From assembly GCA_031415455.1 (NCBI GenBank), contig JANORS010000005.1:134123-198122 (forward strand): DNA of 64,000 nt, written 5' to 3'. Shown here piece after piece: positions 4,713 to 63,732 of this stretch (positions are counted from its first letter, which is position 1; each line of letters begins with the position of its first letter). This DNA is from Acidobacteriota bacterium (GTDB lineage Bacteria > Acidobacteriota > Blastocatellia > Pyrinomonadales > Pyrinomonadaceae). The position numbers and the translations under genes were made by a program. The notes under the pieces are model-generated. The model ran no database searches. It saw nothing but the letters and a program-made list of their open reading frames with translations, and was not told the DNA's origin.

Positions 4713-5262
4713 GGCGATAAATTTCTGGTAAAGGAATAGTTAAATCAATCGAGGCAAATTCCACAACATCAATCTCTTCATTAAAAAGATAGGTTATCTA
4801 ACCGCCGTTCGCCTGTCTACGATGAACTTGAACTTTTTTTCGCTATTGGTCAACTACGACATACTATTGTTGCAAGCTCTCTATTTGTTGAAATAAAAAG
4901 ACTTTTTCACGGCGGTCAATGCGATTGGTTGATTTTGACACGATTTCAATTATCAAAATTGGATTATTACGGAAATATGAACTTTCTGGGGTTTCTTCGC
5001 AAGAAACTAAAATGTCGGGATAATAATAAACTGTTGGTGTAACGCGAATTTTAATGTCATTAAAAAAAGGTTCGCATGGCGAATCTTTAAGATGATTTGA
5101 AGGAGTATTTACAAGATTTCTTGCAATCCGATTATGATTATCACTCACTCCAGCTATCGCAAAAACTTCCCCATTAAAATATTCGTGTTTAACCGGGCTG
5201 ACTTTTTCGTTTTCCAAATAATCTTCAATACTAATTTTGGTCTTAAATTTCAGTAATCCCAT
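4672..5262 (-). pseudogene. Uma2-family (DUF820) endonuclease gene interrupted by three in-frame TAG codons
   Basis: ORF 4864..5262 carries the Uma2 N-terminal pattern (EYFNGEVF, SDNHNRI, IIEIVSKST..DRREK). Reading on in the same frame past TAG at 4864-4866, 4843-4845 and 4798-4800 gives YVVVDQ / RKKVQVHRRQANGG / ITYLFNEEIDVVEFASIDLTIPLPEIYRRV, the expected Uma2 C-terminus. That reading ends at TAA 4672-4674. Confidence 0.6.
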
Positions 5263-5341
5263 AACGTAATTTTAGCAAATAAATAAATCGTTGTAATATG
5301 TTAGCAGACAAAATACCTTTGAAAGAACTTTGCCAAGACTT

Positions 5342-10438: not shown

Positions 10439-10445
10439 AAAACAC

Positions 10446-10497
10446 GACATTTTGTCACACTTATTTTTTTACAAGACATTTTGTCGGACATTTTGTC
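10446..10497 (+). promoter_or_regulatory. Three copies of the palindrome GACATTTTGTC (GACA-N3-TGTC), a candidate enhancer (UAS) for the adjacent sigma-54 activator
   Basis: Identical 11-mers at 10446-10456, 10475-10485 and 10487-10497, about 85-140 nt upstream of the sigma-54-type promoter. Confidence 0.5.
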
Positions 10498-18474: not shown

Positions 18475-18550
18475 TTAATTGCCTAAACAAAATCTTATAG
18501 CAAACTATCTAGTAGGTTAATTCTTGCATCAAAATTAACCTTAACACTTA

Positions 18551-18594
18551 AGACGTAGAATTTGAGATTCAAATTCTACGTCTTTTTGTTTTGT
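18551..18594 (+). terminator. Rho-independent terminator
   Basis: Perfect 15-bp stem AGACGTAGAATTTGA / TCAAATTCTACGTCT, 3-nt loop, then TTTTTGTTTT. Confidence 0.85.
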
Positions 18595-18848
18595 AAAAAA
18601 AGGAAAAAGTTATGAAAATGAAAAAATCTCCTATGATAATTTAAGTCGCAGTTATAGAAATGTTTGGAGTTGTTTCATTTGTGAGTCCAACAATTTTTCT
18701 CAACAACATAACCGTTTCAATTAAAACGCTGCCGTATTCTCTTTAAAAAAAGATAAACTGGATCCTCAATAAGCCCCCAAAAACACCCCGATTACCTGTT
18801 TTCTGCAACAATTTTGTTTCATTTTGCAGTGCAGTGTTATAAGTCTGA

Positions 18849-18925
18849 TATGGTCTCATAAAACAGGACACAAAACTCTCTGATAAAATGACAGTCTGGG
18901 ATAATATGACAAAAAATCCAAGAAG
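18849..18925 (+). mobile_element. Solo remnant of the IS3-family left end (same sequence family as 37228-37305, opposite orientation)
   Basis: TATGGTCTCATAAAACAGGACACAAAACTCTC matches the reverse complement of 37273-37305 with 2 mismatches. A second shared block AAAAAATCCAA follows. No transposase ORF is attached. Confidence 0.4.
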
Positions 18926-18955
18926 CAAGTGAAATTTTCGTTCCCCTAAAAACAA

Positions 18956-21900: not shown

Positions 21901-22144
21901 GATTTGAACCAAATACGAGCCGCTTTCCGTCAGGCGAAAACATCGGTCTAGATTCGTTTGCTGCGTGGGAAACAAGTAGTTGAGCAGCTCCGCCAGTTGC
22001 GGAAACTGACCAAATATCGCCGCCTGAGACAAAAACAATTTCTTTACGGTCTGGCGAAAATGAAGGTTCGGTTAAGTATGATGCGGCAAAAATATTTAGG
22101 GAAAGAAGTACGATGGTAGCGATTACAGAAAAGTGTCGTTTCAT
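18956..22144 (-). CDS. Tricorn-like protease: two TolB/PD40 beta-propellers, PDZ, S41 peptidase domain; secreted
   Basis: 1062 aa. N-terminal signal peptide, many SPDGK/WSPD repeats, a Pro/Ser-rich linker, and a C-terminal PDZ plus S41-like region (VIDVRNNNGG). Confidence 0.8.
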   Translation of the reverse strand: MKRHFSVIATIVLLSLNIFAASYLTEPSFSPDRKEIVFVSGGDIWSVSATGGAAQLLVSHAANESRPMFSPDGKRLVFGSNRTGNGDIYVLNLETNDLQRITFDDANDQLDAWSRDGNWLYFTSNSKDIAGMNDIFRVSSNGGTPMQVSSDRYASEFWSMPLNDGSIIFSARGISSGQWWRKGKSHIDETEIWSKTGDKYEQISPRGAKQLWVMATADGSKMFYISDRNGTQNLWSQPKGGQAKQLTNFTDGRVLWANLSYDGKEIVFERNFGLWKINADGGKATELAITLRGLSTIPASERTNLSTNIREFSLSPDGKKVAILARGEIFAASTKEGGEAVRITNSAAPESFVTWSGDSKKLVYSSERNGSLELFNYDFGSETETQITKGKNQDFSPVFSPDGKTLVFIRNGRSLMAYDVNSKQEKELCKVFTDTPPVLGGRLLAWSPDSKWIAYLSYSPETRSYTNAYAIPAIGGKSQALSSLANSNAGTISWSPDGTFILFDTSQRTEDGAIARIELKLRTPKFKEDSFRDLFKQENPKEKPTSPSPASSPIPAASPAAKPDEKKEDSKPTEVVFEGIRQRLSLLRLGLNVGEQAISPDGKTLLVLASAEGQFNLYTISLDDLATDTSARQLTSTATFKSNPQFSPDSKEVYFLENGRMNIVNLDKRDVRPLSINAEMNANFATEKIEIFKQGWRYMRDNFYDEKYHGADWNAVEKTYEPYIQGARTMDEVRRIMNLMVGELNASHLGVGGATGFTPTPIGKLGLRFDRNEYETTGRLKITEIITLSPIAITKTVNVGDFLLSVDGVKIDGKTNLDELLSNKVGKRVVLGISNDGTTSKDVIVKPISTGVEKQLLYRQWVEASREYVAKISSGKLGYVHIPDMSSGSLDQLYVDLDAENQGKQGVVIDVRNNNGGFINPYVIDVLSRRGYLTMKERGLWEVPSRSALGQRSLERPTILITNQHSLSDAEDFTEGYRSLKLGKVVGEPTAGWIIFTWGSTLFDGSSLRLPRQLVLGSDGKNMELNPRQVDIPVTRPIGESLTGKDTQLDAAVKELLGQIER

Positions 22145-38506: not shown

Positions 38507-41500
38507 TTAACGAACAAAAATAGTTGGAAGCGGTAAATCGCCACTTGCTCCAAACTGTTGTGAAACAAAATTATTGTTTAAACTTTGCAGATAATACCAA
38601 AAATTATTGGTTGAACGAAATACTGCAATATCACGTTTTCCATCGCCATCGAAGTCTGCTTGAAGCGGTAAATCAGAATTAATTCCAAATTGAAAAGCTG
38701 AAAAACCTTGCGTTGTTTTTTGCAAATACCAAGTTGAATTGCTTGGTCTGAAAACCGCAAAATCAGCTTTTCCATCGCCATCATAATCTCCAACGACAGG
38801 TTTATCGCCGTTTTGACCAAATTGAATTGCTCTAAATCCGTTATCTGAACTCTGCAAAACATACCAAACGCCAATGTTTGGACGGAAAACAGCAATATCA
38901 GATTTACCATCGTTGTCAAAATCAGCATTTACTGGCAAATCTTGGTTGCTTCCAAATTGTGAAGTTCGAATTTGCCCATTTGAGCTGTTTAAAATATACC
39001 AAGTGCCGTTTGATTGCCGAAAAACTGCGACATCAGCTTTTCCGTCTCCATCAAAGTCATCAGGCGTTTTTATGTCATTAGCTAAGCCAAAATTATTTAC
39101 TGAAATAGTTTGATTTGAACTATTTAAAACAAACCAAATATTAGTTGAAGGTCGGAAAATTGCGAAATCTGTTTTTCCGTCGCCATCATAATCGGCGTTT
39201 ACCGCAATGTCGTTTGTTGTTCCCCAAGAAACACCTTGAAGTGCAGAATTGCTACTTTGACGAACAACAAAATCAGGCAAATTATCGGCTGAAGTTGGTC
39301 TAAAAACACTTAAATCTGTATTCCCATCGCCATCAAAGTCAAACGGAGTTTTAAAACTCAAATTCTGGCGGCAACATTCATAATTGTCCAAAACTCTGAA
39401 GTTGTCGATAAACTGACCTTCGCGTGTTCCGCCAATATCTGTGCCAACTCTAAATCGAAATTGGACATTTTGTCCCGCCGCAGAAGCAGGAAGTTTTGCT
39501 CTCGTAGTTATAAAAACTGCTGTATTGTTGAGTCCGCTTTTGCCCGACCAACCAAGTCTTCCAGCGAGCGGATTTTGACAACAACTGTCAATTATTCCGT
39601 CATAACCGCCTGATAAAAACGTTCCACCTGCAGCCAAAATATCTTGCCAATTTCCGCTTCCAATTTTTATTTCTAAAACACTTCCATCGTAAAGTCGATT
39701 GCGTAAAAACGTCGATTCCAAGTCATATTTGTTACGAAACTCGAGTTCAGCTGTCGTCGAAACTATTGAGAATGTTGGTGTTATAAGTTCGTTACTGCCA
39801 ATTTGATTTGGAGTTGCAGAGTATGCACCGTTTGGCGGAGTGTCAAATGAACGTTCGGTTAAAACCCAATTAACGCCCATACCGGTCGATGAAGTTGTCC
39901 AACCTTTTGGCAGATTTGGAAGCGGAAAATTGTCGAATTCTTCATCAAGTGCAAAGCGACGCTTTCCGGCATTAAACCTAAACGAAACAGTGCCAAGATT
40001 CTCGCTTCCATCTTGCAAACTTAATGTTAAAACGATTTCATCACCACACGTTAAAGCAGAGTTTGCAGTGAAAGAAAATGGACGCGAAACGGTTGAACCA
40101 TTTATTGCTAATAAGCCGTAAGTTTGTGCGTTACTTGGGTTCGTTATGCCGCCAGTTGGTTGCAAAGTAGCGACTAAATTTGCAGTGTCGCGTGAACCAG
40201 TGTTGCGTAATGCGAGATTTATTTGAATCGCTTCGCCCGGATCAATGGTTTGATTTAGAGAACAGCTTTCTGCCGTAATTTCAGTGCCGGAATTTACCAA
40301 AACTGCAGTTGGTTGCAAGGCAAAATTTTGTGTCAAAGTTTGTCCGTTTATCGTCGGAACAGTAATTGTTTGCGATTTGTAACCTTTTGCTGTTGCCGTA
40401 ATTGAATAAGTGTTCGGCACAAGCAATAAAGTTCCATAATTTCCGCTTGAATTTGTGCCACGAGAGAAAGTTGAATTTGCCGTAACCAGTGCATTAGCAA
40501 TTGGTTGCGAAGTTTCTGTATTCGTCACAATTCCGATAATTGTTGAACGAGGTGCATTTATACATTCTGCAAAACGAAATTTTCCGATTCGAGTTAACCA
40601 ACCAAAATCGCTTTCGTTCTGACTTTCGAGAGTATAGTATTCGTTTGTAAACCAAAAAGTGCAATCGTCAGAAACGTCAGTGTTCATCGCACTATAATCG
40701 CCCCAACGAAAGCCAAACGCAGTCTGCACACCGCTTGCATTTGCTAAAGTTCCCTCGGTTCGAAATGTGCTTTCAGTGGAGAGTTTTCCCGAATAAGCCA
40801 CATTTGGAACTTTTGCGTCATTTGTAAAACTATATCCAATTGCTGAATTTCCTTGCCAATCTTGTGCAGCACTTCCCATCCAACGGCTAGATTCGTTATC
40901 GCCAATTGTCGAAGCTGTGTTCAGTGTAAACGTTGAACCAATTCGGTTTAACTCATAAACGCGAACTCCTGCACGATAAGGCAGACCAATTGCCGAAGTC
41001 CGCACAGTTTGGTTAAAAATCAATGAATCGTGCGTTCCAAAATTACGATAACCAACGCGATACATTAATCTGTCACTTTGCGAATCGAGTGCTTCAGCGG
41101 GAGAAGGCGGAAAAATATCATTTCTGCCATCAGGACTTGTCGGATCGAAAGCGGCAACTAAAACGGGACTTTCTGCACGTTCGTTAAAGGTTGATAATGT
41201 TGGGTTTGCGAAGTTAGGTTTGAAATCAAAGAGACGAACTGCATCAGCTGAATCGCCATATTCAGTTGCAGAATATCCAACAAAAGTGTTTGGTGTGTTT
41301 GCCGGTGGCGGCGACATTCCGTCTAAATCGCTCGGTAAAAGTCCACCAAAACGAATCGTTGAAGGCGAAGCTAAATCAAAATAAACATAACTTGCGTTTG
41401 CATCGCCAACCAACATTTTCGCTCTATCAAAAGCGAAAACACCGGAACCAGCATAATCACTGCCAATAAATTCGTCCGTGGCGAGATAATAACCATCGCT

Positions 41501-42253
41501 CCAAACTCCGAACTTGCTGTAATCATTGAGTTTATTGTTTGGCATTACAAATTCATAGATGAAATATGAACCTGTCGGATCACCGGTTTGCGAAACTGCA
41601 ATCATTTGACGAAACGGTGGTGCGAAAGTGCAAAATTGCGAAAGCATCCAACGATCTGCCAAAGTGTCATATAAAACAATCGGATCGCCATCATCGCGAC
41701 TTGAACAAGGTGTTCCAAGTGTTGTAAATAAACTACTTAACCTAAATGGTGGAGTTTGCGGATTACCATTTTTGTCAAAAACACGTATCAGCGAATTTAC
41801 AGCTTGAACATAATGATTTAAGCCAACATCGCCATTTGTGTCCGGCGGAACGATGCGAAATCCATAAGCCGCCGCATTGTCATTACTTGATAAACCGTCA
41901 AATGCCAGACTTGGGTTTGGCATCGGAAGACTTGAAAATCCGTTAAGATTTGCGTCAGCGTCACGAATTGCGTTTGGAGCTATTTTTCTAAAAGGTAGAT
42001 TATTTGGAATTTCGAGCGACTTTTCATCAGCACTTTTTTTACTTTTATTTTTGTTTGGCGAAGCCGGTGGAAATGAACTAACCGGCTCTGAAATACCAAA
42101 AGCTGCTGCTGTTTTAGATTGAGGTTGTAATTCAGAAAGAGTTTCTTTTTGAACAGTTTTTGAATCAAGTGTTGTGCTTTCAACACTTTGCCAATATGCC
42201 AACATCGAAATCGAAGTAGCAACAATCAAAAGTAACGAAATTCTGTTACGCAT
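38507..42253 (-). CDS. Large secreted multidomain protein: unknown ~550-aa N-terminal domain, CarboxypepD_reg-like and CARDB-like Ig folds, MAM/LamG-like domain, six FG-GAP/VCBS-like repeats
   Basis: 1248 aa with a signal peptide. Contains IIGIVTNTETSQPIANALV...YSITATAKGY. The C-terminal 275 aa is 6x DFDGDGK.D.AVFRPS..WY. Confidence 0.7.
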   Translation of the reverse strand: MRNRISLLLIVATSISMLAYWQSVESTTLDSKTVQKETLSELQPQSKTAAAFGISEPVSSFPPASPNKNKSKKSADEKSLEIPNNLPFRKIAPNAIRDADANLNGFSSLPMPNPSLAFDGLSSNDNAAAYGFRIVPPDTNGDVGLNHYVQAVNSLIRVFDKNGNPQTPPFRLSSLFTTLGTPCSSRDDGDPIVLYDTLADRWMLSQFCTFAPPFRQMIAVSQTGDPTGSYFIYEFVMPNNKLNDYSKFGVWSDGYYLATDEFIGSDYAGSGVFAFDRAKMLVGDANASYVYFDLASPSTIRFGGLLPSDLDGMSPPPANTPNTFVGYSATEYGDSADAVRLFDFKPNFANPTLSTFNERAESPVLVAAFDPTSPDGRNDIFPPSPAEALDSQSDRLMYRVGYRNFGTHDSLIFNQTVRTSAIGLPYRAGVRVYELNRIGSTFTLNTASTIGDNESSRWMGSAAQDWQGNSAIGYSFTNDAKVPNVAYSGKLSTESTFRTEGTLANASGVQTAFGFRWGDYSAMNTDVSDDCTFWFTNEYYTLESQNESDFGWLTRIGKFRFAECINAPRSTIIGIVTNTETSQPIANALVTANSTFSRGTNSSGNYGTLLLVPNTYSITATAKGYKSQTITVPTINGQTLTQNFALQPTAVLVNSGTEITAESCSLNQTIDPGEAIQINLALRNTGSRDTANLVATLQPTGGITNPSNAQTYGLLAINGSTVSRPFSFTANSALTCGDEIVLTLSLQDGSENLGTVSFRFNAGKRRFALDEEFDNFPLPNLPKGWTTSSTGMGVNWVLTERSFDTPPNGAYSATPNQIGSNELITPTFSIVSTTAELEFRNKYDLESTFLRNRLYDGSVLEIKIGSGNWQDILAAGGTFLSGGYDGIIDSCCQNPLAGRLGWSGKSGLNNTAVFITTRAKLPASAAGQNVQFRFRVGTDIGGTREGQFIDNFRVLDNYECCRQNLSFKTPFDFDGDGNTDLSVFRPTSADNLPDFVVRQSSNSALQGVSWGTTNDIAVNADYDGDGKTDFAIFRPSTNIWFVLNSSNQTISVNNFGLANDIKTPDDFDGDGKADVAVFRQSNGTWYILNSSNGQIRTSQFGSNQDLPVNADFDNDGKSDIAVFRPNIGVWYVLQSSDNGFRAIQFGQNGDKPVVGDYDGDGKADFAVFRPSNSTWYLQKTTQGFSAFQFGINSDLPLQADFDGDGKRDIAVFRSTNNFWYYLQSLNNNFVSQQFGASGDLPLPTIFVR

Positions 42254-54355: not shown

Positions 54356-55060
54356 ATGGAAATAACGCCAGAACTTTCAATATTTTCGATTCTTGTAATC
54401 GGCTTTCTTTTAGGATTGCAACACGCGACTGAAGCAGATCATCTAGCAGCAGTTTCAACGATTGTGAGCGAAAAAAAGAACCTCTTTGCTTCGTCAATTA
54501 TCGGCGGAATGTGGGGAATTGGTCACACAATTTCGCTTTTTGTAGTCGGTTTGTTAGTAATATTTTTGAAACTTCAAATATCAGAGAGTCTTGAAGCAAA
54601 ACTCGAAGCCGGAGTTGGTATAATGCTTGTTTTGCTTGGTTTAAATGCTTTGAGAAAATTATTATTTACAAAAGATTTACACGTTCACAAACACGATCAC
54701 GCCGGACACGAACACCTGCATTTACACGATCACAGCAAAAATTCTGAAGAAAAATGGCATCATAATTTAAGTCCACGATCAGTAATTATCGGAATGATTC
54801 ATGGCTTGGCTGGAAGTGCAGCATTGATGCTTTTGGTTGTGCCAACAATAAAATCACCTTATTGGGCAGTTGCTTACATCCTGATTTTTGGACTTGGCTC
54901 AGTTGGCGGAATGATGCTGATGAGTTTTATTGTCGGTTTGCCATTTCATTTTACCGCAACAAATTTTGTAAGTTTGAACAAAATTATCAGATTTTCAGCG
55001 GCGATTTTTAGCTTTGGGCTCGGGCTTTATATTGTTTACGAAAAATTATTTGCAGTTTAA
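54356..55060 (+). CDS. NiCoT/UreH-like metal-transporter-type membrane protein with a His-rich loop
   Basis: About 6 TM helices. QHATEADHLAAV resembles the NiCoT HA.DADH signature. Loop HVHKHDHAGHEHLHLHDH. Confidence 0.5.
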   Translation: MEITPELSIFSILVIGFLLGLQHATEADHLAAVSTIVSEKKNLFASSIIGGMWGIGHTISLFVVGLLVIFLKLQISESLEAKLEAGVGIMLVLLGLNALRKLLFTKDLHVHKHDHAGHEHLHLHDHSKNSEEKWHHNLSPRSVIIGMIHGLAGSAALMLLVVPTIKSPYWAVAYILIFGLGSVGGMMLMSFIVGLPFHFTATNFVSLNKIIRFSAAIFSFGLGLYIVYEKLFAV

Positions 55061-55063
55061 TAA

Positions 55064-55687
55064 TCAACTACCAATTTGCCAGGTTTTTATAGATTTAAGC
55101 GGATAAAGCAACATAATAATATTCACGATTAAACTATCGCGAATCCAAAAAAGTAAGATAATTTCAGTTACCAAAAAGAAAGCTAAAGACCACCACAATT
55201 TCAATTTGTAGGCAATATAAAAACCAACTCCGCAACTAAAAATATCGCTCAGTGCGTTTGCAATCGAATCTCCGGTGTAATCTAAAGAGATTGTTTCCGC
55301 ACGGTATCTTTCGATTATATACTTTGAATTTTCTAGAATTTCCCAACTACAAGCAATAACTATTGCAAGAGTAAATTGCCAAATCAACGGCATTTTCTTA
55401 AAGACTAAAGTAATCAACCAAAAGTATAAAACGCCGTGAAGAATGTGCGTAAATGTATATGGATCAAAGAGATGTTGCGAGTTGTGTCGCGTCCAAATAT
55501 CGCTCGACCAAGGTGTAAAAGAATCGTTTGCACACCACCAAATTCTTCCTTGCGATTGAAGAATTAATGCCGTTGCGATAAATGCAAAAATAACTGTTGA
55601 GATTGGGTTTATATTTTTTGCGTTAAAAACTTCTTTCATATTGGCAAATTGTAACCTAAAAACAAAAAGTCGCGAACTTTCGTCCAC
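55064..55687 (-). CDS. DUF2585/UPF0314-family membrane protein
   Basis: FTHILHG and WEILENSKYIIERYRAETISLDYTGDSI match my recollection of UPF0314 proteins. Confidence 0.65.
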   Translation of the reverse strand: MDESSRLFVFRLQFANMKEVFNAKNINPISTVIFAFIATALILQSQGRIWWCANDSFTPWSSDIWTRHNSQHLFDPYTFTHILHGVLYFWLITLVFKKMPLIWQFTLAIVIACSWEILENSKYIIERYRAETISLDYTGDSIANALSDIFSCGVGFYIAYKLKLWWSLAFFLVTEIILLFWIRDSLIVNIIMLLYPLKSIKTWQIGS

Positions 55688-55721
55688 GACTTTTGGTTAC
55701 TTATTTTGATTTTATAAGAGT

Positions 55722-57848
55722 CTAGTTTGCAACTGCCGGCAGATCACCTAGTCTTCCGAAAGGAACTGCAACGAAACTCGAATCTGAACTTCGTAAATAG
55801 TACCAAACTCCGTCGCTTGGTCTCCATACAGCTATATCCGTTTGATTGTCGCCATCATAGTTTCCAGCGACAGGAACATCGCCATTTCTACCAAACGCAA
55901 CACCGTAAAATGAACCGTTAGAGCTTCTGAGAACATACCAAATTCCAGTTGATGGTCGGAAAACAGTAAAATCAGCTTTGTTATCACCATCGAAATCGCC
56001 TGAGATTGCAATATCGTCTTGTGTTCCGAATTGGGCTGCAAAGAAACCACCATCCGAACTTCGAAGACCATACCAAATTCCAGTTGATGGTCGGAATACA
56101 ACTACATCGTCGCGTCCATCGCCATCGAAATCAGCCGCAACCGGTCTGTCTGTCGCAATGCCGAATGGAACGACGGTCAATCCATTGTCCGAACTCCGCG
56201 AGATATACCAAATACCGCTTCGATAAACTGCCAGATCTTTACGACCGTCGCCATCGAAATCGCCATTTACAGGTGCGTCTGAGGCTAGCCCGAATTGCTG
56301 AATTGTTTTTCCGCTATCAGAACTTCTCACAATCTCCCAAACTCCCAATCCACCTACATTTCTGTAAACTGCACTGTCAGTTTTTCCATCGCCATCGTAG
56401 TCGCCGGAGACCAATTTGTCGCCTGCTCCACCGATTATGGTTGTGGTGAATGCACCAGTTACGCTGCTTTGACTATACCAAGTTCCTGTCGAAGGACGGA
56501 AAACGCTAAAGTCATTTGATCCATCACCATCGAAATCTCCGCCATTATTATGTGACGTAAGTCTTCCGGCAATTTCACCGTTTGGATTATTGACGCTTGA
56601 AATGGTTGCAATCCACAAACCCGAACGGAGTGAATTTACTTGACTTGCAGTAACCGGAATTGTCGCAGTTGCGAAGTTGCCGTTTGTTCCACCGATTGTA
56701 CCGAGATCGCGAATCAAAGTTGTAGTTCCACCAACTGTTACTTCAATTTTTGCCGAAGTTTGGTTGCTCGAAAGTCTGTGAAACTCACCAGAAATTGTCG
56801 CTTGTGTTTCGTCTGAATTCAACAAAATCTTAACTTCACCATCTGCAATTGATGTTACTGGTGGTGTTACTTGCGATCCGCTCAAATGTGTTTCGAAATA
56901 TCGTCCTTGTCCAGTTGGAGTTGGCGATGGTGATGGCGAAGTTCCATTTCGGAATGTTCCGGAAAGGATCGTCGCACCTGCATTTTTTACTTGCAATGTC
57001 ATTCCATCTGTTATGACCGGAACGTTAGCACCTTGATCAGACCGAAGTCTTAAACGTGTTTCTCCACCGGAAATCGCAGATTGTCCAACTTGAGTATTTC
57101 CAACAAAAAATTGGACAGCTGTTCCGCTTGGAAGGTTGATCTGACGTAAGTTGACTTCCAATTCAGTGCGGCTGCTATGAATTTCGTAGGCTCCAACTCC
57201 TCTCGGAACTACGCCGTTAATCGTTGCACCTGTCAAAATCGCAGTGATGTCGTTGTCGTCACCTGGCGAAGGTGATGGTGATGGCGAAGCGGTTGGGCTT
57301 GGTGACGCTGTTGGGCTTGCTGTTGGCGATGCTGAAGGCGATGCCGTTGGACTCGCTGTTGGCGATGCTGTTGGAGTTGGAGTTCCAATTGGTCCGTCAA
57401 AAACACCCGCAACCAAGGTCGTTGATCCGGCTCTCATTTGAGCAGTTGAACCTGCATTTACAGTTGGAACTATATCGCCAAACTCAGTTTTCAACTTAAT
57501 CTGTGCTCTTTGATCCAACAACGGTGCTTGACCTACTTGATTTCCGTCTACAAAGCCTGTAACGATTGTTCCGTCAGGCATATTTACGTCTTCAACCTCA
57601 AGCTCGAGTTCTCGCTTGTTCGTCGAATATACTTCGTATGTTCCAACACCGTGCGGGTTTACAGTTCCGGTCGGCGAAACAAGATTTGCTGTGCGAACGA
57701 GAATCGGTATGTCGCCCGCGAGTTCATCATTTGCACTTGTTATCATCGCAATCGGCATGATTGACAAAATCACAGCTGATATTGCCAAGAGCATGCCATT
57801 AAAAAATTTATTGTTTTTTTGCTTTTCGTTTTTCATATACGGTGCCAT
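55722..57848 (-). CDS. Secreted protein: duplicated N-terminal ~130-aa domain, Pro/Thr/Ala/Ser linker, CHRD-like domain, six FG-GAP/VCBS-like repeats
   Basis: 708 aa. Internal duplication GVGTYEVYS...VDGNQVGQ versus GVGAYEIHS...VGNTQVGQ. CHRD-like HLSGSQVTPPV. C-terminal 6x DFDGDG..D.AV[FY]R. Confidence 0.7.
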   Translation of the reverse strand: MAPYMKNEKQKNNKFFNGMLLAISAVILSIMPIAMITSANDELAGDIPILVRTANLVSPTGTVNPHGVGTYEVYSTNKRELELEVEDVNMPDGTIVTGFVDGNQVGQAPLLDQRAQIKLKTEFGDIVPTVNAGSTAQMRAGSTTLVAGVFDGPIGTPTPTASPTASPTASPSASPTASPTASPSPTASPSPSPSPGDDNDITAILTGATINGVVPRGVGAYEIHSSRTELEVNLRQINLPSGTAVQFFVGNTQVGQSAISGGETRLRLRSDQGANVPVITDGMTLQVKNAGATILSGTFRNGTSPSPSPTPTGQGRYFETHLSGSQVTPPVTSIADGEVKILLNSDETQATISGEFHRLSSNQTSAKIEVTVGGTTTLIRDLGTIGGTNGNFATATIPVTASQVNSLRSGLWIATISSVNNPNGEIAGRLTSHNNGGDFDGDGSNDFSVFRPSTGTWYSQSSVTGAFTTTIIGGAGDKLVSGDYDGDGKTDSAVYRNVGGLGVWEIVRSSDSGKTIQQFGLASDAPVNGDFDGDGRKDLAVYRSGIWYISRSSDNGLTVVPFGIATDRPVAADFDGDGRDDVVVFRPSTGIWYGLRSSDGGFFAAQFGTQDDIAISGDFDGDNKADFTVFRPSTGIWYVLRSSNGSFYGVAFGRNGDVPVAGNYDGDNQTDIAVWRPSDGVWYYLRSSDSSFVAVPFGRLGDLPAVAN
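57262..57385 (-). repeat. Low-complexity coding repeat (PTASPTASPTASPSASPTASPTASPSPTASPSPSPSP)
   Basis: Imperfect tandem 12-15-nt units are visible on the plus strand as GGCGATGCTGTTGG-type repeats. Confidence 0.6.
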
Positions 57849-57972
57849 TCCTAGAATTTAGTTTTTCTTTATAAATCGCTTTCACGATTTGATTATTTGT
57901 GTCGCACGAATTGCGGCTTTCAATAACACAGTGCAGAAAATTAGTGAAAAAGACATTATTTCAAAAAAATTC

Positions 57973-58003
57973 AAAAAAAAGAGCCAGCTGTTTAAGCTGA
58001 CTC
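57973..58003 (-). terminator. Rho-independent terminator after the S8 peptidase gene
   Basis: Minus strand GAGTCAGCT-taaac-AGCTGGCTC (9 bp including one G-U pair) followed by T8. Confidence 0.6.
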
Positions 58004-58031: not shown

Positions 58032-59375
58032 TTAAGGTTGAATCGCGATATTTGTTCCTGTGCAAAAAAGATTATTATCAACTGCACATTTAGCATCAAC
58101 CTTTTGATTTTTGATTCTCCCGCGAATCGGGTCATTATAATCAAGTCTAATACCTGTTTCTTTCAATTGATCGAGTACAGCCTGAGGCGTAAGTGCTGGA
58201 AATTTCGCCTTAATTAAAGCTGCAATTCCAGTAGAAATTGGAGCTGCCATTGAAGTTCCGCTCCAACTTCCATACCTTCCGCCGGGCAAGGCACTAACAA
58301 TATCTTCTCCAGGAGCAAGTGCTTCAATCCAGTCTGAACCACCACCATCAGTATTGAAGCTCGAAAAAGTAGAAAGTCTATTCAAACGATTGCTGGCTCC
58401 AACCCCAATTGACGCATTCAAGTCTTCACCTGCTGGATAAACTCTATTGGTATTTGCCCCGTTTCCACCAGCAATTACAGCGGCAATCCGCCTATTTCCA
58501 ATTTCTGGGAAACCAGGCAACCCATCACATGCGGAATCCAAAACTCGTTTCAAAATTTTAGACTCTTGAGGATAACCAAAACTCAAATTGACAATATCTG
58601 CACCTTGATTAGCAGCGTAAATAAGAGCCGCAGTAATTCGCCAGCTTTCACCTTCTCCATTTGAATTCAAAATCCGAATAGGGATTATTTTCGCTTCAGG
58701 TGCAACCAACGCGACAATTCCAGAAACGTGTGTTCCATGTCCATAAGCTCCTTGACGGAAAAAACCAACTTCGCTCGGATCATTGTCGTTATCAACAAAA
58801 TCAAATCCAGGCAATAATTTTCCCGCAAATGCCGGATGAGTTGGGTCTATTCCAGTATCTAAAACCGCAATCTTCACAGGCTGATTGTTGTCGCTTCGAG
58901 TTCCTCTTGTAACCCGATGTGCTTCGGCAAGTCTAATATTATTTGTAAACCAATTTTTGGCATAACCTTTAGAACTTCCACCTACACTCCAAGAAACTCC
59001 AACACTCCAAGAAACCCCAACGCTCCAGGAAACTCCAAGTGTTTCAGGATAAATCATGCACCAATTTGGCTCGACAAAAGTTACACGTAAATCTCCACCA
59101 ATTGCTGTAACAATTTGCATTGGTGTGTTGCCGTTTGTAATTTGCAGAAGATAAATTGGTGGAGTTCCAACCCGTCCGAGAGGTGTCGGATTAAGCCCGT
59201 ATTGAGTTGCAATAGTTGGTAAATCTGTGGCGTTGACCAAACCAATCACTACTTGATTTGGGACAAAACAGTCGCTATTTCCACCTTGTGCAAATGTTGT
59301 ATTTTCAAAAATAAACGCAAATAAAACAAAGGCAAACAATTGCAACAATAACGTTTTAAACCACTTTTTATTCAT
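58032..59375 (-). CDS. Secreted S8 (subtilisin-family) serine peptidase
   Basis: Triad motifs AVLDTGID, HGTHVSG, SGTSMAAP. ATG 59375 gives a signal peptide (MNKKWFKTLLLQLFAFVLFAF). Confidence 0.85.
   Translation of the reverse strand: MNKKWFKTLLLQLFAFVLFAFIFENTTFAQGGNSDCFVPNQVVIGLVNATDLPTIATQYGLNPTPLGRVGTPPIYLLQITNGNTPMQIVTAIGGDLRVTFVEPNWCMIYPETLGVSWSVGVSWSVGVSWSVGGSSKGYAKNWFTNNIRLAEAHRVTRGTRSDNNQPVKIAVLDTGIDPTHPAFAGKLLPGFDFVDNDNDPSEVGFFRQGAYGHGTHVSGIVALVAPEAKIIPIRILNSNGEGESWRITAALIYAANQGADIVNLSFGYPQESKILKRVLDSACDGLPGFPEIGNRRIAAVIAGGNGANTNRVYPAGEDLNASIGVGASNRLNRLSTFSSFNTDGGGSDWIEALAPGEDIVSALPGGRYGSWSGTSMAAPISTGIAALIKAKFPALTPQAVLDQLKETGIRLDYNDPIRGRIKNQKVDAKCAVDNNLFCTGTNIAIQP
58983..59036 (-). 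repeat. Perfectly in-frame 18-bp tandem repeat x3 encoding (GVSWSV)3
   Basis: Units 58983-59000, 59001-59018 and 59019-59036 differ at 2-4 synonymous or near-synonymous positions. Confidence 0.85.
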
Positions 59376-59494
59376 AAAAAACCTCGAAATAAACAAATTC
59401 TTTATTCCATTCCACATGCACAGTGTTCCGATTTTAACAGAAAAGACAATTAAAAATAAAAAGTTTTGAAAAATGAAAAATTATTTGCTTAGTT

Positions 59495-62299
59495 TTAGCA
59501 TTTGCCGATTATAACAAATGGTGACCAATAATAAGGATGTGAATTTTGACTAATAAAACTGATTTGTGAGGTTCTCAGACTTTCACTGAATGACTTGCCT
59601 TTTTTGACTTCTGTATAAAAATATTTCATCAAATTTTGCGTAGCTTCGTCATTAACATTCCACAAACTCAACAATAATGTGCTTGCTCCGGCGGATAGAA
59701 ATCCGCGAGATAATCCAAGTAACTCTTCGCCTTCTGAAAGAAGATTTAAACCTGTTTCACAAGCACTAAGTGTAACTAATTCAGTGTTTAGCTTCATTGA
59801 ACAAACATCGCGAACCGTTATCCAACCATCTGATAGACGTAACGAAGAAAACATCGGATTGTCTTGCCTAAACTCTCCATGACAAGCTATGTGAAGAATA
59901 TCAAACTTGTCTGCATATTTATTGAAATTGGCAAAAGTTGCATTTTCACCGGTTAATGCAACTTTTTCATCAAAGATATTTGAGAGAGTTTTTATCTCTT
60001 CATTTACAAGCGGAATTTTTTCATCGGCATAGCCAATAAATAACGCATTTTTTAATTTACGTTCTGGTTTTGAGAAGCAAATTTGAAAAACAAAAGCACT
60101 TGGTGCAGTTGAAACTTCTCTTTTTTCAATAAGATAACAATCACCATCGTGCAGTGCGTTAAAAGGAACATAGTGTAATTTTCCGAATGGAATAATAACT
60201 AAATTACGATTTTCCAAAAAACTCTCGAGTGGTTTTATGAGCTTTTCATACAATTTTTTCAGATAAAAATCAGCTCGCTTTTTTAATTCAACGGCAAAAC
60301 CGACAAGATTTTTTGCTCCATAACTCAATGCTCCAAATTGAAAATGTAAACCTTCAAGTAAATTTGTAATTTCATCATTTTTTATCAAGTTATCTATAAA
60401 GTAAACATCTTGATTGGTGACGACAAATGCCGATATTTCATCATCAAACCCGACAAATTCAATCAAAACTTTATCTTTGCCAAGTTGATTTTGTAATTTT
60501 GGTATATCAATTAAGTTTCTTTTATTAAATGACTTATCGTTAGTGTTGTTTAATTTTCTTTGAACTTCAGTAATTGCCTGTTCGCGTTTTTTAACTTCTT
60601 CTTGTAAAACTTCAATTTCAGAATCGCTTGCACGAATTAAACGACTATAAAACCAATTTAATTCTTCGCGTAAATTATCGAGTTGTTTGCTTAGTTTTGT
60701 CGAAACTTTATTAGATTTGAGTGAATTATTTTCAGTTCCAAGACTATCTACCAAAGTTCTTGAGCGTGAATGTTCGATAAACAGCAATGCTTCTGCAAAA
60801 CGTTTTTCACGGATATAAATCTTCGCAAGCTCTTGATATGGAACGAGTTTGTTTGCTAAAAATGCCATCCGAAACTCTTCGGCAGGCAAAGGATCACGTA
60901 ATAACTCAATCAACTCGATCGCTTTTTTAAAATACTTTTTCGCATCAGTTATTCTATTTTCTAATAAAGCTAATTTACCCAAAGAAATTTGTGAAGCCTG
61001 TGCAATTTGTCCGTTTTCTTGATTGATTGCTGCGATAAAAGTTACTTCAAGAATCTTTTTTGCCGATTCAAATTTTTTGAGATTGATAAAACATTCTGCT
61101 TTTAACCAACTTGCAGTTAACTGATGTCGAAAATTGCCGGATTTAACTAATAATTCGTCAGCCTTAAGTGTTAATTTAAGAGCTTTACCATAATTTTTTT
61201 CACTAACTTCGAGTTGTGCTTCACTTAATTTAACAACCGCTGCACCAACTAAATTTTTTTCTGAAACATAGAGTTTTGCTGCTTTGTGGAGTTCCAAAGA
61301 TGCAATTTGTGACATGCCTAAATTAATTGCAACACGCCCGAAATTAGCCCTTGATCGAGCTTCTTCACCTTGCATTTTTAGAGTTTTAAAAGAATTAACA
61401 ATGCGTTCATAAATGTCAAACGCTTCGCTATTCAGGTTCAAATCCAAATAAGCGTCGGCAATTTCCAGTTCAGCTGTGGCAACTTGATGTGGCATCTTTA
61501 GTTCATCATATTTCTGCCTTGAAAACTCTAAATATTTTAATGCTTCATCATATCGACCTCTAAAAAGAGCAAGATTTCCAAGGCTAGATTCAATTTCCGC
61601 TTCGGTCACAAACATCTTTGCGGCTTTAGCATGACTTAATGCTTCAGAATAAACTTTATCGGCTTCATTAAATCTATTTTGTGAAGTGTAAACCGTGGCT
61701 AAGCAATTTTCGACCATTGTAAGCTCTTTATAATTACCTACTTTTTCAAATCGCTTCATTGCGGATAGAAATCTTTTTTCTGCATCATCATAGAAATCTC
61801 GACGCCAAAAAATGTTTCCAATATTCTTCTCAACTTTTCCGACTGCTAATTCATCGTGACATTTTTTGAATATTTTTATAGCCTCTTTTCCACAATTTAT
61901 AGCTTCATCGTATCTCCCAAGCATTGCTAGAGCATACAGTTTGCTGACTTGAGTTTGTGCAGATTCATTATCCTTGCCCAGAACAATAAAGCTTTCAGAT
62001 GCATTATTAAGACTTTCGATGGCTGAAATCAATTTTCCCTTGGTCAGTAAAGCAATTCCGGAAACCCAGAAATATAAAGCTGTAATTTCGTCATTGGTAG
62101 TTAATTTAAGGATGGTTTTTATAGCTTTTGAGGCTTTCAAAACTCTTTGCGGTTCGTTTGTCCACGAATCGTAATAAGTGTCTTTGAGTGCTTGAGCAAT
62201 GCTGAGAAATTGGTCTTCTGGAATTTCCTTCAAAAGATCAAGACGTTCAGACTCTTTGGTTGCAACAATCAATTTTTCAGCTAGTTTTTTGTATTCCAT
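59495..62299 (-). CDS. TPR-repeat protein with a C-terminal CHAT (caspase-like) protease domain, cytoplasmic
   Basis: 934 aa with no signal peptide. About a dozen TPR-like A..Y/A..L repeats. CHAT dyad contexts ILHIACHGEF and LVTLSACETG. Confidence 0.85.
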   Translation of the reverse strand: MEYKKLAEKLIVATKESERLDLLKEIPEDQFLSIAQALKDTYYDSWTNEPQRVLKASKAIKTILKLTTNDEITALYFWVSGIALLTKGKLISAIESLNNASESFIVLGKDNESAQTQVSKLYALAMLGRYDEAINCGKEAIKIFKKCHDELAVGKVEKNIGNIFWRRDFYDDAEKRFLSAMKRFEKVGNYKELTMVENCLATVYTSQNRFNEADKVYSEALSHAKAAKMFVTEAEIESSLGNLALFRGRYDEALKYLEFSRQKYDELKMPHQVATAELEIADAYLDLNLNSEAFDIYERIVNSFKTLKMQGEEARSRANFGRVAINLGMSQIASLELHKAAKLYVSEKNLVGAAVVKLSEAQLEVSEKNYGKALKLTLKADELLVKSGNFRHQLTASWLKAECFINLKKFESAKKILEVTFIAAINQENGQIAQASQISLGKLALLENRITDAKKYFKKAIELIELLRDPLPAEEFRMAFLANKLVPYQELAKIYIREKRFAEALLFIEHSRSRTLVDSLGTENNSLKSNKVSTKLSKQLDNLREELNWFYSRLIRASDSEIEVLQEEVKKREQAITEVQRKLNNTNDKSFNKRNLIDIPKLQNQLGKDKVLIEFVGFDDEISAFVVTNQDVYFIDNLIKNDEITNLLEGLHFQFGALSYGAKNLVGFAVELKKRADFYLKKLYEKLIKPLESFLENRNLVIIPFGKLHYVPFNALHDGDCYLIEKREVSTAPSAFVFQICFSKPERKLKNALFIGYADEKIPLVNEEIKTLSNIFDEKVALTGENATFANFNKYADKFDILHIACHGEFRQDNPMFSSLRLSDGWITVRDVCSMKLNTELVTLSACETGLNLLSEGEELLGLSRGFLSAGASTLLLSLWNVNDEATQNLMKYFYTEVKKGKSFSESLRTSQISFISQNSHPYYWSPFVIIGKC

Positions 62300-62323
62300 C
62301 GCAACTAAACTTTAACAACAAAT

Positions 62324-62355
62324 AAAAAAAAGCGAGAAGCCTTTCGACTTTTCGC
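62324..62355 (-). terminator. Rho-independent terminator (or attenuator) between the 169-aa gene and the CHAT gene
   Basis: Minus strand GCGAAAAG-tcgaaagg-CTTCTCGC followed by T8. A second hairpin CGTTTCT/AGAAACG lies at 62360-62383. Confidence 0.55.
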
Positions 62356-62384
62356 TAGTCGTTTCTAACCCCCGAAAGAAACGA

Positions 62385-62894
62385 TTAAGTTAACTCAATT
62401 CCCTGAATAGTAATTTCTTTTTCACCATTTTTTATAATCAAATCGCAAATTCCGCTTGGAATATTCGAAAATGTAAATTCGCTCATTTCATTTGCTTTTG
62501 CTGAAAATTCTCCAAGCCAAATTTCACAATTCACAAAACCTTCACCAAGAATTTGTCCTTTGACTTCGCCGTTGTTAATACGAATGTCAATGCTATTTTC
62601 GCCAGCTTGAAAGAGCATTTGTCGCGATTTTGAAACAGACGCGGAACGCTCACCAAAGGCAGGTTGACCTTGCTTCAAATCTATCTGTAATACTGCTAAC
62701 ACCTTTTGCATCAACGACTTTCTAGGTTCGGATACTTTTGAGCGAAAGATATTTTTCGACCATTGTATCGCGTCTTTTGGTGCGTCAAAGGAATTATCTT
62801 TTTGCATTAGACTTACAATTTTGTCGATCAGATTGTCATTTGAGTTTGCCATTGTGTTCATTTTCGTTGTCCGCCTCATTGGTTTCTCAAACAT
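62385..62894 (-). CDS. Soluble 169-aa protein, candidate sigma-factor partner; C-terminal beta-sandwich-like segment
   Basis: Lies 44 nt downstream of the ECF sigma gene. No TM helix and no HxxxCxxC. The C-terminus (GQILGEGF...FTFSNIPSGICDLII) looks like a CarboxypepD_reg fold. The start codon is uncertain, with several ATGs in the first 15 codons. Confidence 0.45.
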   Translation of the reverse strand: MFEKPMRRTTKMNTMANSNDNLIDKIVSLMQKDNSFDAPKDAIQWSKNIFRSKVSEPRKSLMQKVLAVLQIDLKQGQPAFGERSASVSKSRQMLFQAGENSIDIRINNGEVKGQILGEGFVNCEIWLGEFSAKANEMSEFTFSNIPSGICDLIIKNGEKEITIQGIELT

Positions 62895-62938
62895 ACAGTG
62901 CGAGAAATGTCAGACAAAAGACAAATACTTGAAAAAAT

Positions 62939-63523
62939 TTAGTTAATTAGAATTTTAGCTAATTTATCTAAGCAGCGTTTACGCAGTGGACTAATACTTG
63001 TTTCACCAACTCCAATTGCTTCCGAAACTTCTAAATAACTTGCCGCAGAATCACGCAAATAAATCATTGAGAGAATTTTTTGGCAGCGTTCTTCTAATTG
63101 TTTTAAAGCGTTTCTAATCTGATATTGTTGTTCTATTTCGATTAAAACTTCATCAGCAAGTGGCGAGTTGTCAGCTAAACTCGCCATTTCAAGTTCCATT
63201 TCTTCTTCGGTTTCTGGCGAATAAAAACCTTTTTCGCCGCGAATCATTCCCCAAGTTTTAAATTTTGCGGTTGTTACAAGCCAAGAACGAAGTTTTTCAG
63301 GTTGTTTTATTTCGCTCATTTTCTCAAAAAGAACTAAAAAAACTTCTTGCAAAACATCTGACGATTGTTCTTCTGATAGTCCTGCCCGCCGCGGAATTGT
63401 CACAATTAACCGTTGATAACGATTTACTAACTCATTCCAAGCAGATTCATCGCCATGCTGGCAATTGCGAAGCAGTTCGGTATCAGATTGTCCCAAATTT
63501 GATTCAGAAAACAGTTCAGTCAC
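62939..63523 (-). CDS. ECF-type RNA polymerase sigma-70-family factor
   Basis: 194 aa with a GTG start. Region 2 DVLQEVFLVLFEK and region 4 HTH SYLEVSEAIGVGETSISPLRKRCLDKL. Confidence 0.85.
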   Translation of the reverse strand: MTELFSESNLGQSDTELLRNCQHGDESAWNELVNRYQRLIVTIPRRAGLSEEQSSDVLQEVFLVLFEKMSEIKQPEKLRSWLVTTAKFKTWGMIRGEKGFYSPETEEEMELEMASLADNSPLADEVLIEIEQQYQIRNALKQLEERCQKILSMIYLRDSAASYLEVSEAIGVGETSISPLRKRCLDKLAKILIN

Positions 63524-63634: not shown

Positions 63635-63659
63635 AGTATATATCGGAAAAGTTTTTTAT

Positions 63660-63732
63660 GGAGACGAGGGGGATCGAACCCCTGACCTCATGACTGCCAG
63701 TCATGCGCTCTCCCAGCTGAGCTACGTCCCCA
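63660..63732 (-). tRNA. tRNA-Ala (GGC)
   Basis: Reverse complement GGGGACGTAGCTCAGCTGGGAGAGCGCATGACTGGCAGTCATGAGGTCAGGGGTTCGATCCCCCTCGTCTCC. Anticodon loop CTGGCAG. The G3:U70 alanine identity pair is present. The base after the acceptor stem reads C rather than the usual A. Confidence 0.9.

Follow-up and report, generated by a model that had tools for sequence, protein, structure and literature searches.

The 64,000-nt stretch of Acidobacteriota DNA analysed here (assembly GCA_031415455.1, contig JANORS010000005.1; hereafter, the window) carries on its minus strand, between 55.7 and 63.5 kb, five consecutive genes: a sigma factor of the extracytoplasmic function (ECF) class, a small protein that we call the partner, a protein that joins tetratricopeptide repeats (TPR) to a caspase-like CHAT protease domain (TPR-CHAT), a subtilase of peptidase family S8 and a CHRD/FG-GAP protein. 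Our analysis revealed that these genes form a genuine cassette, conserved widely among soil Acidobacteria, and sequence comparison suggests that the partner is a soluble anti-sigma-type protein that is truncated at its N terminus, with loss of helices I-II and of the zinc ligands. We propose that the cassette encodes a free-standing switch that controls its ECF sigma factor by proteolysis in the cytoplasm, in which the partner would hold the sigma factor, the TPR-CHAT protein would cut the partner and the sigma factor would then drive the outputs, a reading to which we give roughly an even chance.

The initial annotation of this stretch had listed the first four genes (58032-63523) and likened them to Craspase, the type III-E system of clustered regularly interspaced short palindromic repeats (CRISPR) in which a TPR-CHAT protease controls an ECF sigma factor, with the CHAT protease here cleaving the partner. 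The ECF sigma, 169-aa partner, TPR-CHAT and S8 ORFs are all present on the minus strand as it described; it had missed the fifth gene (55722-57848), and the starts of the partner and S8 genes are shifted here. The model that it put forward was reasonable and is partly supported. To this picture our analysis adds a fifth gene, the probable descent of the partner from an anti-sigma protein, a three-promoter layout with a paralog-specific -35 half, a conserved hairpin and a candidate cleavage loop.

Conservation of the cassette

Among the species genomes of GTDB, 80 loci were recovered, in Pyrinomonadaceae, in other Blastocatellia and in Chloracidobacterium, and their synteny was assessed using tblastn with the window proteins. 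The order sigma, partner, TPR-CHAT, S8 was retained in 80/80 loci as far as the contigs reach, a recurrence that places the arrangement far beyond chance. The individual genes were found in 78 (sigma), 72 (CHAT) and 56 (S8) loci; the sigma gene lies upstream of the partner in 78/80, the contigs of the other two being cut. The CHRD/FG-GAP gene follows S8 in about 50 loci and is absent in a few. The cassette is near-universal in one bacterial family and not patchy in its distribution. The locus closest to that of the window (L054) shares 75-92 % amino-acid identity per gene, with only 59 % for CHAT.

Three further loci hold the same four genes, with a partner of the short form seen in the window: one in Rubrivivax sp. 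A210, a second high-GC locus that shares its flanking genes, and a metagenome contig of 72 % GC. Conserved synteny, the absence of which the initial annotation had named as fatal to its model, holds in the 80 genomes, in Rubrivivax and in these two further high-GC loci. Pyrinomonadaceae also possess a paralogous cassette composed of a sigma factor, a long partner with a zinc anti-sigma (ZAS) domain, a TPR-CHAT protein (946 aa) and an 820-aa protein, the last being an S8 peptidase 44-45 % identical to that of the window, with a C-terminal extension. Judged by these gene contents, the four-gene core (sigma, partner, TPR-CHAT and S8) is the unit and the CHRD/FG-GAP gene is an Acidobacterial addition. 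At one locus (L081), a convergent gene for a 1191-aa KAP-NTPase and CHAT fusion (16740-20315) stands right after the paralogous cassette and adds a second CHAT protein to that locus; proteins of the KAP-NTPase-CHAT type are associated with conflict systems.

A partner probably related to zinc anti-sigma domains

The partner gene lies at 62385-62861 on the minus strand. The mechanical 169-aa ORF runs to 62894, with its first ATG under or just after the -10 half of the promoter-like motif described below; hence, we moved the start to M12 (62861, 158 aa), which is most likely the real one and agrees with the family alignments and the usual motif-to-start distances. The 169-aa ORF returned no match in Pfam or NCBIfam and, as had been noted before, the protein has neither an HxxxCxxC zinc anti-sigma motif nor a transmembrane (TM) or other hydrophobic segment (maximum KD19 hydropathy 0.67).

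The partner family comprises at least 617 clusters, almost all of them from Acidobacteriota/Pyrinomonadaceae, and a profile search over 1.84 billion representatives revealed a second, longer subfamily. These long paralogs (about 195-210 aa) carry an N-terminal extension of 42-46 residues and the HxxxCxxC motif, with H32, C36 and C39 conserved at 90 % or more; the motif is absent from the window protein and from every short form. One long form (P0146) matches the Pfam family zf-HC2 (23.3 bits, cutoff 22.2), several others score just below the cutoff, and some long forms are named 'anti-sigma factor RsiW' by the Joint Genome Institute. The partner-family profile also matches RsiW (5wuq_C, E value 1.7e-4) and the anti-sigma domain of DdvA (8rlz_A, E value 0.008), and no Craspase entry is among its matches.

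Comparison of the short and long subfamilies using hhalign (probability 100 %, E value 5e-38) aligned window residues 22-169 with long-form residues 45-201, starting in the middle of helix III; the window partner has no equivalent of long-form residues 1-44, which include helices I-II and H32/C36/C39. AlphaFold2 (AF2) modelled the long form as four N-terminal helices followed by a beta-sandwich, and the window partner as two low-confidence N-terminal helices followed by the same beta-sandwich (predicted local distance difference test, pLDDT, >90). From these alignments, the two N-terminal helices of the partner are equivalent to helices III-IV of the zinc anti-sigma domain. Rubrivivax-type cassettes carry the short form too, and the truncated form is therefore old. 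Within the retained helices, L29, D33, S35, D37, A38, P39, D41, W45 and K47 are invariant in 30 short-form sequences. Weak matches to CarboxypepD_reg and to the beta-subunit of pyrogallol transhydroxylase support a carboxypeptidase-regulatory/transthyretin-like type for the C-terminal beta-sandwich. Foldseek searches with the two AF2 models returned generic beta-sandwiches only, none at E<=0.001; whole-chain comparison being uninformative, the anti-sigma link rests on sequence evidence.

One loop, F80-G81-E82-R83-S84 in the numbering of the 169-aa ORF (R83 becomes R72 when counted from M12), is invariant in the 30 short forms, with the G and R invariant in the long forms too, and is predicted to be disordered in both AF2 models (pLDDT <50). 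This A-F-G-x-R-S loop is the most likely candidate for a CHAT cleavage site, with Arg at P1.

The suggestion in the initial annotation that the small protein is the partner of the sigma factor is credible in view of this homology to long HxxxCxxC paralogs that match zf-HC2, RsiW and the DdvA domain. Of the profile comparisons that it had proposed, those with anti-sigma families (RsiW, DdvA) gave matches and those with Csx30 and Csx31 did not. We rejected the partner as a relative of Csx30 or Csx31, as no similarity was found by phmmer or the family profile against all PDB sequences, or by Foldseek with the two AF2 models.

The sigma factor, the TPR-CHAT protease and the secreted proteins

The sigma gene (62939-63523, minus strand) encodes a 194-aa ECF (group IV) sigma factor that consists only of regions sigma2 (Sigma70_r2, residues 32-89) and sigma4 (Sigma70_r4, residues 139-189) and scores 75.4 bits against TIGR02937 (cutoff 42.9), as expected of a member of the ECF superfamily. 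A hydropathy scan detected no hydrophobic segment in it.

The TPR-CHAT gene (59495-62299, minus strand) encodes a 934-aa protein without a TM or signal segment, predicted to be cytoplasmic. TPR families match its N-terminal half, with the best stretches within residues 52-463, and the CHAT domain is clear (PF12770, 214 bits, E value 4.6e-63). The contexts of the catalytic dyad, which the initial annotation had read as intact, are ILHIACHGEF (His807) and LVTLSACETG (Cys847), and they are conserved in 53/54 and 54/54 full-length orthologs, respectively. With both the domain and the His-Cys dyad present, the protein can be assigned by sequence to the CHAT peptidases. Among solved structures, the best match of the CHAT core is Csx29 (7y9x_B, E value 3.5e-7, about 135 residues); against the Csx29 family model NF041237, the protein scores 80 bits, where the cutoff is 300, and only the CHAT core is covered.

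The S8 gene lies at 58032-59375 on the minus strand (447 aa); the mechanical ORF (461 aa, 58032-59417) starts at an ATG just after the -10 half of a promoter-like motif, and for that reason we moved the start to the ATG at 59375, which is most likely the real one and agrees with the family alignments and the usual motif-to-start distances. The protein matches Peptidase_S8 (PF00082, 146 bits, E value 2e-42) and weakly Fervidolysin N-pro, and its closest solved structures are Ak.1 protease and subtilisin. The intact catalytic triad reported earlier is D173, H213 and S375 (numbered from the ATG at 59375), conserved in 54/54 orthologs, and the N terminus bears a hydrophobic, signal-like segment (KD19 2.06) and a prodomain-like region. 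The triad motifs, the prodomain-like region and the signal-like segment together point to a secreted subtilase. Within the gene, an 18-bp tandem repeat (58984-59038, 3.1 copies) gives three GVSWSV units where the prodomain meets the catalytic domain; the same junction has two copies of GNGWNV in the paralogous S8 of L081 and a single W-x-I-G in Rubrivivax-type proteins. The GVSWSV repeat may be a repeated autoprocessing site.

The fifth gene (55722-57848, minus strand) encodes a 708-aa protein with matches to CHRD, FG-GAP and FG-GAP_3. A signal-like N-terminal segment suggests that this propeller protein is secreted, and it combines a pair of repeated modules at the N terminus with linkers of Pro/Thr/Ala/Ser, a CHRD domain and a set of FG-GAP repeats. 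A degenerate 12-bp repeat (57271-57384) encodes a long (P/S)-T-A-S-P linker between the N-terminal modules, which gave rise to spurious PDB matches to circumsporozoite protein.

A promoter-like motif and terminator-like hairpins

A count of spaced dyads between the genes of every locus brought out one bipartite promoter-like motif, TGTCTTTTT-N12-GCACTGT. Three copies lie on the minus strand of the cassette. The first (TGTCTTTT-N13-GCACTGT, 62895-62923) is an exact GTCTT-N17-CACTG match that scores 27 bits with the position weight matrix (PWM) and stands 34 nt upstream of the partner start. The second (59420-59448) is also an exact match, 45 nt upstream of the S8 start and 4 nt before the ATG of the mechanical ORF. 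The third (57928-57955; GTCTT-N16-CACTG, PWM score 29.5 bits) has a spacing one base shorter and is located 80 nt upstream of the start of the FG-GAP gene. These distances of 34, 45 and 80 nt compare with family medians of 34, 43 and 80 nt for partner, S8 and FG-GAP, respectively. No other match occurs in the 64-kb window, in which 0.41 were expected, and 0/100 shuffles reached three.

Taking a PWM score of at least 18 bits as presence (shuffled sequences never exceeded 10.7 bits), the motif was found upstream of the partner in 75/81 cases, of S8 in 55/56 and of the FG-GAP gene in 45/51. Exact matches in the 946 kb of loci numbered 168, and 144 of them are upstream of one of these three genes; several of the remainder precede displaced FG-GAP-type genes. 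One such gene is seen in L033, where the CHRD/FG-GAP gene (about 4977-7091, minus strand) is now upstream of the sigma gene on the opposite strand; it keeps GTCTT-N17-CACTG upstream, indicating that the motif travels with the gene. The motif was found upstream of the CHAT gene in 0/72 loci and upstream of the sigma gene in 0/78.

The -35 half reads GTCTT in cassettes of the window type and GTATT or GTATC in the paralogous and the high-GC (proteobacterial-type) cassettes, the variants always preceding partner and S8 genes; in high-GC cassettes, CTCTGT or a close variant stands as the -10 half. The motif and the sigma factor of the cassette thus change in step, which is the behaviour expected of that sigma factor's own promoter, and we infer from this covariation that the cassette sigma reads the motif.

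Between the partner and CHAT genes, two hairpins are followed by a T8 run (62323-62383, minus strand; RNAfold dG -13.2), confirming the terminator-like element described previously, of which a terminator scan reported the second hairpin (62331-62356) on the plus strand only. A hairpin with a T-run occupies the partner-CHAT gap in 56/72 loci (78 %), the sigma-partner gap in 9/81 and the region after CHAT in 7/56. An intrinsic-terminator-like hairpin with T8 also follows S8 (57973-58003, minus strand; a nine-pair stem and TTTTTTTT), with a terminator-like site between S8 and the next gene in 44/51 loci, and another terminator-like hairpin follows the CHRD/FG-GAP gene (55665-55694). We rejected a sigma-70-type promoter for the CHAT or sigma gene (a consensus scan gave 17 sites vs 21 in shuffles, none in the relevant gaps) and a structured RNA between partner and CHAT, the only Rfam matches in the window being two tRNAs.

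Comparison with known systems

The closest described thing to the cassette is the ECF54 neighbourhood, and its gene combination is already catalogued. That set of neighbours has been on record for a decade: a review of 2022 (PMC8999054), which draws on Huang 2015 and Casas-Pastor 2021, describes CHAT, subtilase and carboxypeptidase-domain neighbours as conserved beside ECF54 and proposes proteolytic control; the Casas-Pastor 2021 reclassification treats ECF54 as Actinobacterial, without a clear regulator, and stresses a 4Fe-4S neighbour. In both cases, a sigma factor without a canonical membrane anti-sigma is accompanied by CHAT, subtilase and carboxypeptidase(-regulatory-like) neighbours; here, CHAT and S8 are clear, the CarboxypepD_reg-type matches of the partner are weak and the set is conserved in all fetched loci. 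The likeness lies in these neighbour genes; ECF54 was defined in Actinobacteria and the window sigma is Acidobacterial. The ECF54 literature that we found contains no report of an experimental test of such a neighbourhood and nothing on the anti-sigma ancestry of the partner, the promoter layout or the fifth gene.

Among experimentally studied systems, the nearest relative in design is DdvA-DdvS of Myxococcus xanthus (PMC11506125), in which an anti-sigma domain and TPR-CHAT are fused in one protein and CHAT cleavage of the anti-sigma is the proposed trigger. It is the anti-sigma domain of DdvA that the partner-family profile detects (E value 0.008). However, DdvA is a single TM polypeptide with a periplasmic TPR-CHAT part that lacks a three-helix motif, acts with RseP and controls an island of CBASS (cyclic oligonucleotide-based antiphage signalling system) and CRISPR genes, whereas here the genes are separate, their products appear cytoplasmic, neither has a TM segment and the window partner is without the zinc motif. 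SigW-RsiW and other class I ZAS systems share with the cassette the HxxxCxxC anti-sigma domain of the long paralogs (the RsiW profile match at 1.7e-4) and the principle, proposed here, that regulated proteolysis of the anti-sigma frees the sigma factor. RsiW is nevertheless membrane-bound and cut by site-1 and site-2 proteases, while the partner family is soluble with a C-terminal beta-sandwich and its window form is without helices I-II and the zinc ligands. Besides Craspase, an experimental precedent for a protease that cuts a soluble anti-sigma to free an ECF sigma factor is CalpL-CalpT-CalpS (type III-B; preprint), in which a soluble SAVED-Lon protease cleaves a soluble anti-sigma-like protein bound to the ECF sigma; that system differs in its Lon protease, its SAVED sensor of cyclic oligoadenylate and its link to CRISPR, and has no sequence relation to the cassette.

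In Craspase (PMC10028731), Csx29, together with Cas7-11, cleaves Csx30 and thereby relieves the inhibition of CASP-sigma. The resemblance drawn in the initial annotation survives at the level of logic: TPR-CHAT, a soluble ECF sigma inhibitor and the sigma factor are encoded together, with cleavage relieving inhibition in Craspase, and sigma binding motifs lie within the Craspase locus as predicted promoter motifs lie within the cassette. The family tie did not hold. The activator in Craspase is RNA-bound Cas7-11, and here no array was found, nor any Cas protein among the ORFs scanned; the partner is unrelated to Csx30, with no Csx31 and no extra small gene in the cassette; the window TPR-CHAT, at 934 aa and with a long TPR region, does not belong to the Csx29 family; and the cassette outputs are secreted proteins. 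The likeness is one of logic and not of descent: apart from having an ECF sigma factor, the cassette shows none of the features that define the Craspase module.

Proposed mechanism and alternative explanations

In the switch that we propose, the sigma factor would be made at a basal level, probably together with the partner, since the sigma gene has neither a motif copy nor a terminator after it. The partner, with the last two ZAS helices and its beta-sandwich, would keep the sigma factor inactive. A cytoplasmic signal sensed by the TPR region would activate TPR-CHAT to cut the partner, most likely in the invariant disordered A-F-G-x-R-S loop with Arg at P1, and the freed sigma factor would bring RNA polymerase to the three copies of TGTCTTTTT-N12-GCACTGT. 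From these promoters would come the subtilase and the CHRD/FG-GAP protein, both of them secreted, and a new supply of partner, the last resetting the switch by negative feedback, while CHAT, behind the terminator-like hairpin, would probably be made in small amounts by read-through. We infer the binding of sigma factor and partner, the cleavage by CHAT, its site and the nature of the signal; the conserved His/Cys dyad, as well as the analogy with the DdvA fusion, supports a direct tie between partner and TPR-CHAT.

Several observations sit uneasily with this proposal. The window partner, without helices I-II and the zinc motif, may bind the sigma factor weakly, differently or not at all, and neither partner model returned an anti-sigma match in Foldseek. 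An AAC is common in ECF -35 elements and is missing from the motif, of which the cassette sigma factor is the putative reader. ECF sigma genes are usually autoregulated, unlike the sigma gene here, which has no motif copy. Arg at P1 is a guess, and Craspases cut after Met or Leu. In L084, the CHAT gene shares 4 nt with the partner gene, which allows the two to be induced together, and CHAT is therefore not clearly an independent sensor. Finally, a variant in L086 (7812-8000 and 8001-13149) consists of a ZAS-form partner, TPR-CHAT and S8 with no adjacent sigma gene; it directly follows genes for a histidine kinase and a sigma-54-dependent response regulator, a sigma-54-like TGGCACG-N4-GTGCA precedes its partner gene, and before its S8 gene only the -35 half of the cassette motif is found.

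The L084 overlap fits another arrangement, an ordinary sigma/anti-sigma pair with a neighbouring regulon, in which the partner would be inactivated by a general protease or by redox and TPR-CHAT would be an output or an unrelated neighbour, such as a cytoplasmic effector protease. The window leaves no room for a CHAT promoter of its own after the terminator, and CHAT probably depends on read-through from a sigma-dependent transcript. The zinc motif retained by the long paralogs, moreover, is of a kind that the authors of the DdvA study linked to sensitivity to reactive oxygen species. Yet CHAT never has a motif copy, whereas S8 and FG-GAP each do, and the terminator-like hairpin parts CHAT from the partner in 78 % of loci. 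A direct functional tie is suggested by the DdvA fusion and by the strict adjacency of partner and CHAT, which holds across at least two phyla as well as in the paralogous cassette; we regard the arrangement without such a tie as unlikely. The truncation of the partner raises a different possibility, namely that the short form is no longer an anti-sigma and that TPR-CHAT itself acts on the sigma factor, through cleavage or through retention on the TPR, with the partner as a substrate decoy, adaptor or protease inhibitor. The loss of helices I-II and H32/C36/C39, the low confidence of the modelled N-terminal helices and the ECF54 statement in the review (PMC8999054) all fit, as does the sharing of the short form with Rubrivivax-type cassettes, which makes it a stable design and not decay. 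Strong conservation of the retained helices (nine invariant residues in 30 sequences) nonetheless implies a maintained binding function, and anti-sigma genes classically stand behind a sigma-dependent promoter that provides negative feedback, the layout proposed here for the partner. Short two-helix anti-sigma modules exist besides, for example in the CnrY/NepR class, and we consider direct control by CHAT improbable.

CHAT proteases and protease-released ECF sigma factors recur in defence (Craspase, SAVED-CHAT, CalpL and DdvA), and the KAP-NTPase-CHAT gene adjoins the paralogous cassette in L081, raising the question of whether the cassette serves defence against phage or abortive infection, with TPR-CHAT as the sensor of infection. 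We judge this unlikely, with only a slim probability: PADLOC gave no meaningful defence-system match for the five cassette proteins (the sole matches being generic subtilase and generic TPR), the flanks are housekeeping genes, no plasmid homolog was found, the cassette is near-universal in one family, and both proposed outputs of the sigma factor are secreted, a poor fit to an intracellular defence effector. A relic or true relative of the type III-E module (Csx29-Csx30-Csx31-CASP-sigma) minus Cas7-11 and the array is effectively excluded. The two share their protein classes and Csx29 is the best structural match of the CHAT core, but the score against the Csx29 model is far below its cutoff, neither phmmer nor profile or fold comparison likens the partner to Csx30 or Csx31, there is no candidate gene for Csx31, and the housekeeping surroundings hold no array in the window and no cas gene among the ORFs scanned. 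Nor is any cas family annotated among the called genes listed for the related loci L081-L086.

More speculatively, and with a small chance of being correct, the sigma/anti-sigma-domain partner/TPR-CHAT trio could be an old free-standing module spread across Acidobacteriota, Burkholderiales-type genomes and probably Actinobacteria, of which DdvA sensors and the sigma arm of type III-E would be later offshoots or convergent re-uses. The TPR would then sense a cytoplasmic ligand, possibly a re-imported peptide from the cassette's own subtilase, giving a self-reinforcing, quorum-like circuit. Were this so, it would provide the first demonstration of a caspase-type protease governing ordinary gene expression in bacteria outside defence.

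How ECF sigma factors without a membrane anti-sigma are activated is a question to which the locus supplies checkable parts: a candidate anti-sigma and cleavage loop, a catalytic Cys and a three-copy promoter motif as a ready reporter, with the paralogous cassette and its one-base -35 change as a natural specificity control. If the proposed switch is true, CHAT proteases regulate transcription outside CRISPR and phage defence, and the logic of Craspase is one instance of a broader design; if it is not, what is left is a sigma/anti-sigma pair that has proteases as neighbours.

Surroundings of the cassette and other features of the window

The cassette is flanked by housekeeping genes (nadB, carA, asparagine synthase and a penicillin-binding protein). 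A tRNA-Ala(ggc) gene (63658-63732) does stand upstream of the sigma gene, as noted in the initial annotation, but only the window and L054 share it among 20 loci checked, and the neighbourhood is therefore incidental; in the same 20 loci, a tRNA-Leu lies about 3 kb upstream in two and a tRNA-Arg beside the sigma gene in one. We accordingly rejected the tRNA-Ala as a marker of an integration site or island. Consistent with the earlier statement that the stretch is free of CRISPR components, no CRISPR-like array of spaced direct repeats was found in the window, and no cas-like domain was detected in the ten other large ORFs scanned; the only two ORFs of more than 1000 aa, both included in the scan, code for a tricorn-like protease and an FG-GAP protein, and sensor kinases and housekeeping enzymes are found among the others.

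Two further FG-GAP proteins are encoded in the window, one of 1248 aa with a CarboxypepD_reg domain (38507-42253, minus strand) and another fused to a glucose/sorbosone dehydrogenase domain (16492-18474, plus strand), along with the 1062-aa tricorn-like S41 protease (18956-22144, minus strand); the cassette motif is absent upstream of all three genes. For a 597-aa ORF (13496-15289, plus strand), Pfam returned nothing at E<=1e-5. Two direct copies of ACA(C/A)GACATTTTGTC, 29 nt apart (10442-10494), precede a gene for a hybrid PAS-histidine kinase/receiver/Hpt protein (10865-12874) and may be a putative regulator binding site. A 234-aa membrane protein (54356-55060, plus strand) carries a His-rich loop (HVHKHDHAGHEHLHLHDH), which suggests a putative metal transporter.

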